Assembly: GCA_050014195.1 (NCBI GenBank)
Contig: JBEKDT010000002.1
Location: forward strand, 64,001-128,000
Source of the DNA: Desulfomonilia bacterium
GTDB taxonomy: Bacteria; Desulfobacterota; Desulfomonilia; UBA1062
DNA: 64,000 nucleotides
Direction of reading: 5' to 3'
The notes under the pieces: model-generated
Database searches by the model: none
The model's input: the letters and a program-made list of their open reading frames with translations, nothing else
What the model was told of the DNA's origin: nothing
Shown: in pieces, positions 15,755 through 20,823 of the stretch
Position numbering within the stretch: the stretch's first letter is position 1
How the letters are laid out: every line of letters starts with the position of its first letter
Translations under genes and position numbers: made by a program

Positions 15755-18149
<2,395 letters not shown>

Positions 18150-18165
18150 GGCCTGTAAACGCCTC

Positions 18166-18477
18166 CTAGTCTTTAGAGATCTTTGTGATACGCACTTCGG
18201 TAAGATACTGCCTGTGGCCTATAGTCCTGCGGTATCTCTTCCTGCGCTTCATCTTGAACACGAGGATCTTCTTGTCCCTGAGTTGTCTGACGACCGAAGC
18301 ACTGACCTGGGCGCCCTTGACCGTAGGAGAGCCGATCGCAAACTCGTCACCGCCGAGGAGCAATACATCGGCGAAGGTGACCGTATCGCCCTTTTCCGCT
18401 TCCAGCTTCTCTACGCGAAGGATGTCACCCTCTTCTACCTTGTACTGCTTCCCGCCTGTCCTTATAACCGCATACAT
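18166..18477 (-). CDS. rplU: 50S ribosomal protein L21
   Basis: [26 protein letters not shown]; ATG 18477. Confidence 0.98.
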
Positions 18478-18622
18478 GATGCACCTCGAAAGCATGGTTG
18501 TTCAAAGAATGAAGAGCTATTAATGAAAGTGCTCGGTGTTGTCAAGGAATTTCCCTGGGGAATTGTTAAATTCACCTAAAGTAAAACGACAAAGCCCTCA
18601 TGCCATAATTTAAAAAAAGGAC

Positions 18623-18756
18623 AAAAAAAATGCCAGAAGATTCAGGTGTGGGGACGGTTGCGGAATGGTGTGTCCCTTCTTCTGGCATCAAAAGGAGGTT
18701 TCAGTTAAGAACTTTGTTTTCGAGTATTGACCTTTCTTTGCTTTTCTATTTTTTTA
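18623..18756 (-). ncRNA. Candidate sigma-54-dependent small RNA (about 135 nt) with anti-SD motif and 3' stem plus U-tract
   Basis: Upstream GG-N10-GC box; A-rich 5' part; AACCUCCUUUU; 11-bp stem 18630-18640/18678-18688 with inner stem 18650-55/18672-76; U8 tail; no ORF with an RBS. Confidence 0.5.
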
Positions 18757-18766
18757 CTCAATATAT

Positions 18767-18782
18767 TGCCAAATATATGCCA
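18767..18782 (-). promoter_or_regulatory. Putative sigma-54 promoter
   Basis: Minus strand TGGCATATATTTGGCA (GG-N10-GC). Confidence 0.55.
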
Positions 18783-18908
18783 CTGGGAAATGTATCTTCA
18801 AGGCATTGATTACAGACTCTATTATTGGATTCTATTCGCGTCCTTTGGTGGCTGCACCCAAACAGCCTTCATTTTTTGTGGTCGCCGGACCATAGCCTAT
18901 GGTTTTCA

Positions 18909-19208
18909 TTACCTACTTATCTTTAACCTGATCTTAAACTTGTTTACCTTGCCCTGCTCCTGGTTGACCATATCCGTGACCTGGCCAAGGCCGAAGACCT
19001 TACCGCCGCTGCCATGTGGATTCAACTGAGGATTATCCCGGCATTCCGGACAGAAAGACCTTATGGCAACTTCCTCTTGAGCAGTGCGCCATATCTCAAT
19101 GCTTCGGCATTTCTTGCACAATGGCCTCAGGCAGCCATCACACTCAGTGATGGATTGTCTCTCATTGCATATGCCGCAGAATTTTAAATTTACATTTTGC
19201 TTTCTCAT
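18909..19208 (-). CDS. Small Cys-rich (zinc-finger-like) hypothetical protein
   Basis: CGIC, CDGC, CKKC, CPEC: four CxxC pairs in 99 aa. Confidence 0.7.
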   Translation of the reverse strand: MRKQNVNLKFCGICNERQSITECDGCLRPLCKKCRSIEIWRTAQEEVAIRSFCPECRDNPQLNPHGSGGKVFGLGQVTDMVNQEQGKVNKFKIRLKISR

Positions 19209-19237
19209 ACGAGTGCCCTGTGTTCTCTTCAGGTAAT

Positions 19238-19253
19238 TGCGAATGCCATGCCA
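19238..19253 (-). promoter_or_regulatory. Putative sigma-54 promoter of the zinc-finger gene
   Basis: Minus strand TGGCATGGCATTCGCA (GG-N10-GC), 30 nt before ATG 19208. Confidence 0.6.
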
Positions 19254-19440
19254 CCTTTAATTCCAGAATTATGAAATATAATATTAATATGTTATGTGCC
19301 GCCCCCCAATACACATGAATATGAAGTTCAATCAGGTCTTATGCATTTGCACCATAGTTTGGTGTTCGGGCCATAATTGACAAGGGATGCCGAATCCTTT
19401 ATTCAATGAACATCTTTTTGCAGCGAGGGTTTACGCTTCT

Positions 19441-20823
19441 ATGGATTTCTTTTTCAAACCTAATGGTATTGCCGTAATCGGTGCCAGCGACAACAAGTCC
19501 AAAGGCGGTTTTCATCTCATCAACAATACCCTTCAAAGCTATAAGGGCCAGGTCTATCCGGTCAATCCGCGGTATGAAACTCTCCTGGGCAGGCAGTGCT
19601 ACCCTGATGTCTCATCCATCCCCGCAGACTTTGATCTTGCCATATACTTCATCCCTGCCCCTTCTCTCCCCCATACCATTAAGGAATGTGCAAAGAAGAA
19701 GGTGAAAGGCATCATCATAGAGTCGGCAGGTTTTGCAGAGGTCGGCCCGGAGGGCAGGAAACTGCAGGAGGAGTGTGTTGCCCTCGCAAAAAGGTATGGC
19801 ATCAGGCTCTGGGGACCAAACTGCATGGGTTTGCTGGATGCCCACAATGGCCATGTTTTCTCTTTCATGTATACGGATGCCTGGAAGACATTGATGAAAC
19901 CAGGTGATGTATCCATGACTGTCCAGAGCGGCATGCTCTCCGCCGGCTTCCTTATGATGATCCTGGAGCGTGGCGGGCTGGATATAAGCAAGATGTGCTC
20001 CATCGGCAATAAATGCGATGTTAATGAGACAGAGCTTTTGGAATATTTCATCAATGATCCCACCACCAATGTTATCGGACATTATGCAGAATCCATTGCC
20101 GACCCGAGGAAGTTTTTTGAACTGGCTTTAGGCACAAATAAACCCATCGTGCTGCTCAAAGGCGGTCGCAGCCCTGGAGGGGCAAAGGCGGCCATGAGCC
20201 ATACGGCCAGTATGGCTCTCGACCATACGATCCTGCGCTCAGTCATGAAGCAGGCAGGCATCATAGAGGTCACGGATATAACCGAGCTCATGGACTTCCT
20301 CAGGGGTTTCTCCAAGATAAAGAAATGTCATGCATATGAAGATGCAGGGACTGCTGTGGTTACTTTTTCAGGGGGTGGCGGTATCGTCACATCCGATCTC
20401 CTGTATGAGTCGGGCCTGAGCCTCGCCGAGTTGAGCCCGGAGACCCTGACTGCCTTGAAGGCGGTCTACCCCCCATGGATGGACCCGGGAAACCCCACAG
20501 ACATCTGGCCGGCTATCGAGCATAGCGGCTTACAAAAGGTTTATACCGCTGTTTCAGAATCCATCCTGCACGATGACCGTGTGGACTCGGTCATCATCCA
20601 CATCTTTGCCAGTATGCCCGAGGCCTCTATGTTTGAAAACCTCGGCAGGCTGAAAGATGAGCTCGGGAAACCTGTAGTGGCATGGCTTGCCGGTGTAGGA
20701 GACAGGGTAAAGACGCTCAGGGCCGGCCTTGAGAATCTGGGTATTCCGGTCTTTGACGAGATGGGCCGCTGCGTCTCATTCCTGGCTGCTGCAAAACAGC
20801 ACTTCCGCAAGCGCGGCAGATGA
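19441..20823 (+). CDS. Acyl-CoA synthetase (NDP-forming) alpha-subunit-like CoA-binding protein
   Basis: IAVIGAS, PVNP, SAGFAE, GPNCMG, QSG, SIGNKCD, phospho-His motif AAMSHT, SGGGG, NPTD; no ATP-grasp domain. Confidence 0.88.
   Translation: MDFFFKPNGIAVIGASDNKSKGGFHLINNTLQSYKGQVYPVNPRYETLLGRQCYPDVSSIPADFDLAIYFIPAPSLPHTIKECAKKKVKGIIIESAGFAEVGPEGRKLQEECVALAKRYGIRLWGPNCMGLLDAHNGHVFSFMYTDAWKTLMKPGDVSMTVQSGMLSAGFLMMILERGGLDISKMCSIGNKCDVNETELLEYFINDPTTNVIGHYAESIADPRKFFELALGTNKPIVLLKGGRSPGGAKAAMSHTASMALDHTILRSVMKQAGIIEVTDITELMDFLRGFSKIKKCHAYEDAGTAVVTFSGGGGIVTSDLLYESGLSLAELSPETLTALKAVYPPWMDPGNPTDIWPAIEHSGLQKVYTAVSESILHDDRVDSVIIHIFASMPEASMFENLGRLKDELGKPVVAWLAGVGDRVKTLRAGLENLGIPVFDEMGRCVSFLAAAKQHFRKRGR

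Follow-up and report, generated by a model that had tools for sequence, protein, structure and literature searches.

On the minus strand of the 64,000-nucleotide (nt) stretch of Desulfomonilia DNA analysed here (the window; coordinates are positions in it unless a contig or locus is named), the interval 18623-18782, between the gene of a zinc-ribbon protein and rplU, carries the elements listed below. Together they very probably constitute a real, previously uncatalogued gene for a sigma-54-switched small regulatory RNA (sRNA), which belongs to a family limited to one uncultured lineage related to sulfate reducers.

18623..18756, minus: predicted type-A small RNA of about 134 nt, beginning at the inferred sigma-54 start and closing with U8
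18767..18782, minus: sigma-54 type -24/-12 box TGGCATATATTTGGCA, with the canonical GG-N10-GC spacing
18701-18756, minus: A-rich leader, read from the sequence
18722..18729, minus: conserved CAAUACUC box, at which the conservation of type A starts in alignments
18687..18707, minus: conserved single-stranded segment UAACUGAAACCUCCUUUUGAU, 21 nt, predicted to be unpaired
18690-18700, minus: AACCUCCUUUU, read from the sequence
18691-18699, minus: ACCUCCUUU, predicted to be unpaired, identical to the 3' tail of 16S rRNA
18631..18687, minus: two-tier terminator hairpin, from fold prediction
18687-18678 with 18640-18631, minus: outer stem of the hairpin, UGCCAGAAGA / UCUUCUGGCA, from the fold
18676-18672 with 18655-18651, minus: inner stem of the hairpin, GGGAC / GUCCC, from the fold
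within the hairpin, minus: CAUUCCGC in the apical loop and CCACACCU in the 3' internal loop, from the fold
18623..18630, minus: U8 tract, intrinsic terminator, read from the sequence

The promoter box differs from TGGCAC-N5-TTGCA by a single mismatch. Because C18768 is taken as position -12, by a rule that we assume to apply here, transcription is predicted to start near 18756; the 3' end of the RNA is placed by the hairpin and the U8 tract, from sequence and fold. The outer stem comprises 11 pairs in the fold when one additional A-U pair is counted, and CACACC is present twice, in the C/A-rich loops of the hairpin. All the minus-strand elements that the first-pass annotation of this DNA had listed (box, A-rich leader, CCUCC motif, stems, both copies of CACACC, U8) can be located in the sequence; on the plus strand, AGGAGG is followed by TTTCAGTTAAG and lacks a start codon, as had also been claimed.

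Within the window, the statistics do not beat chance. The box expression TGGCAYN5TNGCW matches twice in the 64 kb (18767-18782 and 19238-19253) against 0.62 matches expected, and at least two matches are found in 14 of 100 shuffles; the fold of 18757-18623 (135 nt), whose dominant feature is the two-tier hairpin, has z = -1.88, with 6 of 200 shuffles folding equally well. The hairpin is absent from the listing of a simple terminator scan, which permits loops of 3-8 nt only. Since box count and fold energy are weak, significance must come from comparison across genomes, and on the evidence of sequence it is cross-genome conservation that shows the feature to be real.

When the segment 18560-18830 was compared by blastn with 40 relatives, the core was matched in 13 of the 14 other genomes of the genus (E 1e-31 to 1e-124; the genome without a match is 86% complete), in four of ten genomes from other genera of the family (E 7e-6 to 7e-30, the flanks being diverged), and in none of 16 sister-family genomes. 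The aligned block is sharply bounded: it runs from the CAAUACUC box to the U-tract, reaching about 100 nt upstream of the hairpin, and the sequences on either side have diverged. In other genera the counterpart of the CAAUACUC box is C[AG][AG]UACUC; the box may mark where the RNA is processed, or it may pair with AACUG. Even the nearest relatives are distinguished by a one-base indel (U4/U5) within the block. As this indel and the variable loop lengths disrupt every reading frame, both overlapping open reading frames (ORFs), one of 39 amino acids (aa) on the minus strand (18572-18691) and one of 59 aa on the plus strand (18630-18809), are ruled out as coding.

Several genomes gave multiple weaker blastn matches, through which paralogs were found. 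An exact-pattern scan (CCTCCTTT, gap, GCCAGAAG, gap, CTTCTGGC) over 185,579 genomes, one per prokaryotic species, returned 98 matches, 96 of them in metagenome-assembled genomes of this lineage, labelled Deltaproteobacteria, Desulfomonilia, Thermodesulfobacteriota or Syntrophaceae UBA1062/UBA6087, one of which is Phox-21; the two remaining matches (Acidobacteria, Fulvivirga) both lack a U-tract and were rejected as chance. A covariance model built from 69 family sequences (R1) and searched against 122 genomes of the class matches 37 of them, namely the window's own genome and 36 of the 51 others of one family, with no match in 70 genomes of the sister family. By genus, R1 is found in 14/14 genomes of g1, 12/12 of g5, 5/5 of g11, 2/2 of g23, 1/1 each of g6 and g3, and, weakly, 1/2 of g22; seven other genera have no match. 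Copies number from 1 to 10 per genome, and CCUCCUUU together with the hairpin is kept across at least six genera. On the window R1 covers 18623-18721 (E = 6e-17), and the window's genome holds two copies, type A here and type B on contig C3 (161402-161504).

For the window region, no Rfam 15 family reaches E <= 1, the best being an unrelated snoRNA at E = 1.3, and a cmscan of 17800-19600 at E <= 10 returned only three chance-level matches to unrelated families, without an L21 leader. Among 13 type-A loci there is no Rfam match save a weak one to RAGATH-23 (E = 0.049) on the opposite strand, with 27.6 bits against a cut-off of 92.6; six loci of types B-D have none at E <= 1.

The matches of the pattern scan fall into four types, set by the sequence directly 5' of CCUCC (the two chance matches are counted under D):

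type A, 31 matches: ..UACUC..AACUGAAA, the type of the window
type B, 35 matches: ACAACAAGUGUUGUUCUGA
type C, 12 matches: ACUCUCUGUAAGAGAAA
type D, 20 matches: UCUCUUCUAAAGAGAG

Common to all four is a module of a hairpin, CCUCCUUU, and a C/U-rich terminator hairpin. The small 5' hairpin is clear in types B-D and weak or absent in A; the unpaired segment is (A/C)CCUCCUUU; and the outer stem of the terminator hairpin pairs GCCAGAAGA with UCUUCUGGC. The inner stem varies by type (GGGAC/GUCCC, GGGGACAAG/CUUUGUCC, GGRGCAUAG/CUAUGCYC) and closes a C/U-rich loop (AUUCCGC, UCCUCUCG, CCUUCC, CCCUCC), the 3' internal loop is A/C-rich (ACACCU, ACCCC, ACUCC), and a U-tract, of seven or more U in almost all 88 distinct family members, closes the module. 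In types B-D the module stands at other loci and has no sigma-54 box; the type-B copy on C3, on the plus strand, follows a paired histidine kinase and response regulator and likewise lacks the box. Type B is the most constant of the four in sequence across genera.

Formal covariation counts on this module are weak, and folds of the individual sequences were therefore used instead; in these, the two-tier architecture is kept in all four types despite their differing inner-stem sequences. Within types as well as between them, the inner stem retains its pairing with changed bases (GCAUAG/CUAUGC against GCAUAA/UUAUGC and GACAUAG/CUAUGUC), and in the model-based alignment of 87 distinct rows 96.7% of cells pair. 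MAFFT and model alignments alike show an outer stem that hardly varies and inner stems that, from type to type, do not line up. The lower-scoring R1 matches, which are independent of the scan pattern, have compensatory outer-stem changes (GCCGGAAGA/UCUUCCGGC and GCCGGGAGAGA/UCUCUUCCGGC), as do divergent members (GCCGGAAG with CUUCCGGC). The predicted helix of the hairpin is supported; that its sequence and the loop motifs stay almost constant is real, and goes beyond what pairing by itself would account for.

Upstream of the type-A RNA and of the zinc-ribbon gene, promoter boxes are combined with palindromes, of which the two nearest the RNA are named as upstream activating sequences (UAS):

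18877..18894, minus: UAS1 palindrome TATGGTCCGGCGACCACA, TATGG-N8-CCACA, starting 112 nt upstream of the box of the RNA
18844..18861, minus: UAS2, a degenerate palindrome TTGGG-N8-CCAAA, from the sequence and upstream comparison
19238..19253, minus: sigma-54 box of the zinc-ribbon gene, TGGCATGGCATTCGCA, from the sequence and the pattern count
19339..19375, minus: two palindromes, TATGG-N8-CCAAA/CATAA, upstream of the box of the zinc-ribbon gene

A box of the form TGGCAY-N5-T[TCGA]GC[AT] occurs in 34/34 type-A upstream regions (which include one locus twice), 67-275 nt upstream of the conserved core AACUGAAACCUCC, where chance matches are estimated at about 0.015 per region; its non-consensus spacer positions vary freely, which fits a functional box. 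The box and the CCUCC motif, on whose conservation the first-pass annotation had staked its proposal, are thus both conserved. At every type-A locus with sufficient flank, one or two TATGG-N8-CCATA palindromes lie 100-150 nt upstream of the box. UAS1 has one mismatch to this consensus, and almost all relatives with sufficient flank carry a palindrome of its type with one mismatch or none; UAS2 reads TTGGGTG..CACCAAA in the genus and comes nearer to TATGG..CCATA in other genera. The same two palindromes account for two plus-strand 'terminator-like' sites of the simple scan. They are putative enhancer-binding sites for the type-A promoter, and the RNA is predicted to depend on sigma-54.

The second sigma-54 unit that had been proposed at the zinc-finger gene is upheld by its box at 19253-19238 and by the enhancer-like motif common to both units. 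Among 121 box-like sites in the window's genome, four are preceded, at a distance of 40-220 nt, by a palindrome with no more than one mismatch, against an estimated 0.6 or so expected: those of the type-A RNA, of the zinc-ribbon gene, of a zinc-ribbon paralog (C1:382848), and of a coenzyme A (CoA)-transferase-like operon (C15:96998). The genome encodes rpoN (C1:447228-447704) and has 27 matches to Sigma54_activat, 25 of them strong. A search for the activator by neighbourhood yielded no candidate: the ORFs beside the two other regulon promoters are not activators, and none of the 27 activator matches is adjacent. From C15:96998 onward, on the plus strand, an exact TATGGTCTCAACACCATA palindrome and a sigma-54 box TGGCATACTTTTCGCT precede ORFs of 364 and 268 aa, which by eye look like CoA-transferase subunits and probably belong to the same regulon.

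The most conspicuous part of the RNA is ACCUCCUUU, which is identical to positions 1521-1529 of the 16S rRNA of the window's genome (16S tail GGAUCACCUCCUUUCU). When nine type-A RNAs are compared with the 16S sequence, the identity over these 9 nt is the only similarity to recur consistently, and derivation of the RNA from 16S rRNA is ruled out, the similarity being limited to the tail. The surrounding segment UAACUGAAACCUCCUUUUGAU is near invariant in 28 distinct type-A sequences. The mean unpaired probability of CCUCC is 0.90 in type A (n=28), 0.94 in B (n=30), 0.84 in C (n=11) and 0.87 in D (n=19). The motif is present in 88/88 distinct family sequences, although CCTCC formed part of the pattern by which these were collected; R1 matches obtained independently of the pattern carry the same motif or the variants CUCC/CCCUC.

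As to what this segment might pair with, RNAduplex comparison with 37,909 GGAG sites of the genome gave a broad distribution without an outlier save the segment's own antisense. Outside that antisense, the longest exact complements in the genome are of 12-13 nt, with sites upstream of an acyl-CoA-dehydrogenase-like ORF (C27:7430) and of a 247-aa ORF (C16:36756); complements of 11-13 nt are numerous and fall at ordinary strong Shine-Dalgarno regions. An 18-nt target pattern with at most three mismatches occurs in 52 genomes at a frequency near that of the reversed control, with no conserved extended site, and the translation starts of rplU and of the zinc-ribbon gene show no convincing complementarity by eye. 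Hfq-binding sRNAs usually have a U-rich 3' end and an A-rich leader; the RNA has a terminator hairpin with U8 and an A-rich leader, and the window's genome has an hfq gene (C10:55416-55595).

The genes that flank the RNA, and the control elements of rplU, are the following:

18909..19208, minus: gene of a zinc-ribbon protein of 99 aa, an ORF and conserved upstream neighbour with the same type of control
18498..18545, minus: promoter-like region of rplU, with TTGACA (18545-18540), a 17-nt spacer and TAATAG (18522-18517)
18498-18510, minus: boxA-like AUUCUUUGAACAA, after the TAATAG of rplU
18166..18477, minus: rplU (L21), followed by rpmA and obg (Pfam L21, L27, Obg)

Type A always stands in the order zinc-ribbon gene, RNA, rplU. 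The zinc-ribbon protein has only sub-threshold zinc-finger matches in Pfam; its family is present in 48 of the 51 other genomes of the bacterial family and in none of 70 of the sister family. Comparison of coordinates places the best zinc-ribbon match 300-700 nt ahead of type A in all genera that have the RNA, and the C-terminus of the protein (KFKIRLKI-like) is found within the available upstream flank at 16 of 32 distinct type-A loci; at most of the others, the flanks are too short to pass the long leaders, which puts the C-terminus out of reach. In genera without the RNA, the zinc-ribbon gene keeps palindrome and box and has other downstream neighbours (5 of 6 loci examined). The RNA may have this protein as a partner. 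Two zinc-ribbon paralogs are encoded in the window's genome, of 99 aa in the window and of 75 aa at C1:382915-383140 on the plus strand, with the arrangement CxxC..CxxC..CxxC..CPxC, each behind a sigma-54 box with TATGG-N8-CCATA palindromes.

Downstream, the start of L21 (MYAVI.TGGKQ) is found within 420 nt in 29 of 32 distinct type-A loci. The rplU block CCTTGACAA..TTTCATTAATAGCTC, which lies after the terminator of the RNA in the alignment, is conserved in several genera and resembles the rrn promoter and boxA of the window's genome, which suggests rrn-like control of the rplU-rpmA-obg operon. The rplU promoter is absent from the listing of a consensus scan, its -10 element fitting at only 3-4 of 6 positions.

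The leader of the RNA is of about 55 nt in the window's species and its closest relatives, of 70-200 nt elsewhere in the genus, and of 160-260 nt in four other genera. Neither the multi-paralog family nor these longer forms, which in most genera have about 250 nt of leader with a boxA, had been noticed in the first-pass annotation. In 16/16 long or intermediate leaders (among them those at L016:1260-1514, L039:469-725 on the minus strand and L072:142-405, with 13 others), the sequence GYUCUUUNAYAA occurs 15-45 nt after the predicted start; we take it to be the boxA of rRNA antitermination. The rrn leader of the window's genome has GUUCUUUGAUAAAG and its 16S-23S spacer GUUCUUUAAAAA. As the expression has only 33 matches in the whole genome, its presence in all 16 leaders greatly exceeds what chance would give. 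It is unusual for a sigma-54 non-coding RNA to carry a boxA; the window's own RNA has just a degenerate look-alike, GUUCUUAAC. The long leaders further share the conserved hairpins GAUAUY..RAUAUC and ACUGGGG..CCCCUUUUAUGCC, with modest covariation (3 of 25 predicted pairs change on both sides), and have no match in Rfam.

These comparisons show the sequence elements, their conservation, the non-coding character, the family distribution and the synteny, and the gene, promoter type and architecture of the type-A RNA are well supported; sigma-54 dependence, transcript ends, Hfq involvement, pairing mechanism and targets belong to the proposal that follows. Sigma-54 RNA polymerase at 18782-18767 would be activated by an enhancer-binding protein that occupies the two TATGG-N8-CCATA palindromes, about 70-130 base pairs upstream, and transcription would stop at the hairpin and U8. 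The exposed anti-Shine-Dalgarno segment of the RNA would then pair in trans with the ribosome-binding sites of mRNAs, with selectivity coming from the bases that flank the motif and possibly from the loop motifs; pairing would exclude 30S subunits and lower translation, probably with the help of Hfq. As the four types combine a common 3' module with different promoters, different signals would feed the same kind of effector.

To this account as a whole, an independent sigma-54 sRNA gene whose product blocks ribosome-binding sites in trans by anti-Shine-Dalgarno pairing, we give slightly better than even confidence. The action in trans is read from the unpaired anti-Shine-Dalgarno copy, the C/U-rich loops, the U-rich 3' end, the A-rich leader, hfq and the paralogs; the independence from rplU and the zinc-ribbon gene, from the occurrence of the B-D module at other loci and from the promoter-like block that rplU has of its own. 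Several observations weigh against it. The target searches gave no outstanding mRNA, and every strong Shine-Dalgarno site should be able to pair with a copy of the 16S tail, which leaves specificity unaccounted for; of the trans-acting regulatory RNA that the first-pass annotation had proposed, what stands is a conserved, non-coding RNA with an unpaired motif, and what the searches did not provide is a specific target. The strict linkage to rplU is not accounted for by a purely trans role. The AAAGG of the leader can pair weakly with the CCUCC region in the full-length minimum-energy structure (frequency 0.016). Across the 87 rows, 7 of 10 outer-stem pairs are invariant and 2 change on both sides, an invariance that stems partly from the collection, the pattern having fixed eight stem bases per side. 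Across genera, outer stem and loop motifs (UCCGC, CCACACCU) are near invariant, which suggests a constraint beyond pairing with diverse mRNAs, for instance a protein partner.

This invariance and the fixed place beside rplU leave room for three other readings. In the first, which we regard as unlikely, the RNA would not pair with mRNAs; imitating the 16S 3' tail, or another invariant motif, it would bind the ribosome or a protein and so titrate a factor. Candidates would be Hfq, S1/S21, the co-regulated zinc-ribbon protein, or some RNase or initiation factor by which the 16S tail is recognised. Besides the 9-nt identity and the failure to find a specific target, this would explain that outer stem and loop motifs are near invariant in sequence, and not in pairing alone, across genera and types, that a small basic-tailed zinc-ribbon gene with the same promoter architecture is the constant neighbour, and that the long-form relatives carry boxA, as rrn leaders do. 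Yet the RNA is without the repeated protein-binding motifs typical of known sponge RNAs and without similarity to 16S rRNA past 9 nt, and the zinc-ribbon family (48/51) is wider than the RNA (36/51); since the gene persists in genera that lack the RNA, the protein does not need it. Bolder, and a degree less probable, is the proposal that type A is not an ordinary mRNA-specific riboregulator but a sigma-54-induced mimic of the 3' end of the small-subunit rRNA: in most genera it would form a miniature rRNA-like transcript, with boxA about 20-35 nt after its start and an exact 16S tail near its 3' end, and RNA and co-regulated zinc-ribbon micro-protein would either contest Shine-Dalgarno sites with the 30S subunit or titrate a factor by which the 16S tail is recognised. 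If so, a sigma-54 signal would be coupled to global translation capacity, beside the ribosome-assembly operon rplU-rpmA-obg.

About as doubtful as the mimic is a role in cis, in which the RNA would be a sigma-54-driven leader of rplU-rpmA-obg with its terminator as attenuator or insulator, and read-through under inducing conditions would aid or disturb the transcription of rplU. The common strand and the closeness of the rplU start at nearly all type-A loci are what it would predict, and boxA in the long-form leaders is a signal of the Nus antitermination complex; however, the strong terminator (11+5 base pairs, U8) is followed by the conserved rrn-like promoter block of rplU, the B-D module lies away from ribosomal genes, as near the two-component system on C3, and neither the L21 leader nor any other leader family of Rfam matches. 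Least probable, and in our view very unlikely, is that no separate RNA gene exists, the hairpin being the terminator or 3' untranslated region of the zinc-ribbon gene, with box and CCUCC incidental. The simple scan, with its loops of 3-8 nt, finds no minus-strand terminator between the stop codon at 18909 and the hairpin, so that zinc-ribbon transcripts probably end at 18623, and there is a precedent in ccaF1-CcsR, where a small protein gene is co-transcribed with downstream anti-Shine-Dalgarno sRNAs (PMC8034643). But all type-A loci have kept the box and the palindromes that separate the gene from the hairpin, the conserved block reaches about 100 nt upstream of the hairpin, the B-D module occurs without a zinc-ribbon gene, and genera without the module keep the gene with other downstream neighbours. 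That the hairpin serves merely as the terminator of 18909-19208, the objection that the first-pass annotation had raised against itself, is accordingly improbable, with an enhancer and promoter unit in between and the module recurring elsewhere.

Both sigma-54-dependent and anti-Shine-Dalgarno sRNAs are known in kind; the family is new. The cuckoo or alpha-r14 family is recognised by CCUCCUCCC in the loops of two to four hairpins. The present RNAs fall outside it: the window, 13 type-A loci and six B-D loci have no Rfam match, and the motif differs. The alpha-r14/NfeR1 sRNAs silence mRNAs by unpaired anti-Shine-Dalgarno motifs (CCUCCUCCC) acting on ribosome-binding sites (PMC10746234), and CcsR RNAs are located downstream of a small protein gene (PMC8034643). 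The likeness to alpha-r14, NfeR1 and CcsR1-4, the 'cuckoo' RNAs of Alphaproteobacteria, extends to an ultraconserved unpaired anti-Shine-Dalgarno motif amid differing stem sequences and to several copies or paralogs per genome (PMC10746234, PMC4615179); to CcsR, it extends to the small protein gene upstream, which for type A is the zinc-ribbon gene (PMC8034643). In contrast, their motif is CCUCCUCCC and the one found here CCUCCUUU, the exact 16S tail; they have three identical loop copies, where the present RNAs have one main single-stranded copy with degenerate C/U-rich loop motifs; and they come from another phylum with other promoters, without covariance-model similarity (no Rfam match at E <= 1).

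Qrr1-5, GlmY, CrcZ and NrsZ are sigma-54-dependent sRNAs, of which CrcZ and GlmY act as protein decoys. Type A shares with them a -24/-12 promoter with activator sites, a short non-coding RNA and an intrinsic terminator, and with Qrr also the multiple copies; it has no relation to them in sequence or structure, and Qrr pairs via another conserved segment. LhrC of Listeria and RsaE/RoxS of Firmicutes are similarly multi-copy or widely conserved, with C/U-rich motifs that bind Shine-Dalgarno regions, but these motifs are UCCC/CCCC and not the full 16S tail, and the RNAs are not sigma-54 dependent, belong to another phylum and are unrelated in sequence. The L21 leader of Firmicutes is, like type A, directly upstream of rplU on the same strand and ends in a terminator; type A differs by its own sigma-54 promoter, the separate rplU promoter after the terminator and the paralogs elsewhere, and no covariance-model match was obtained upstream of rplU (17800-19600). 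Literature searches found nothing on Desulfomonilia sRNA, on Phosphitivorax small RNA or on ACCUCCUUU as an sRNA motif, and for anti-Shine-Dalgarno, sRNA and sigma-54 combined they returned unrelated work only.

The comparisons thus add a new and well-supported RNA family, without a model in Rfam 15, for a lineage known only by metagenome-assembled genomes and enrichments, which includes the phosphite-oxidising Phox-21. Its design is modular, with one anti-Shine-Dalgarno effector module, at least two promoter classes and up to ten copies per genome. Around type A there is a small putative sigma-54 regulon of two zinc-ribbon micro-proteins, the RNA and the CoA-transferase operon, whose palindromic enhancer motif could be used for finding activator and signal. 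The exact copy of the 16S tail poses the question whether there is a mechanism of specificity or whether the RNA is a global competitor for ribosome-binding sites.

Some 45 nt before their 5' hairpin, the copies of types B-D share a motif that resembles a promoter, ..TTTCAG..CTGATAYAC or CCGATTTAC. It reads TTACAC-N4-TTTCAGC-N6-GCTGATAC in C/D and TTTCCGATTTAC in many B; a strict expression for it matched 12 of 28 C/D rows. The motif has a loose likeness to sigma-28-type -10 elements.

A few outlying loci depart from the common module. At L173 (G096:C44:236880-237060), in another genus, AAAACCUCCUCUUUUUU is followed by a simple hairpin GCCAGGCAA..UUGCCUGGC and U7 (R1 E = 6e-5); this may be a reduced relative or a coincidence. 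In the divergent L170 and L171 (G103:C17 and C95), only a weaker ACUCCUUU is left of the 5' motif and the 3' internal loop contains a complete ACCUCCU, so that the position of the anti-Shine-Dalgarno motif can shift inside the module.

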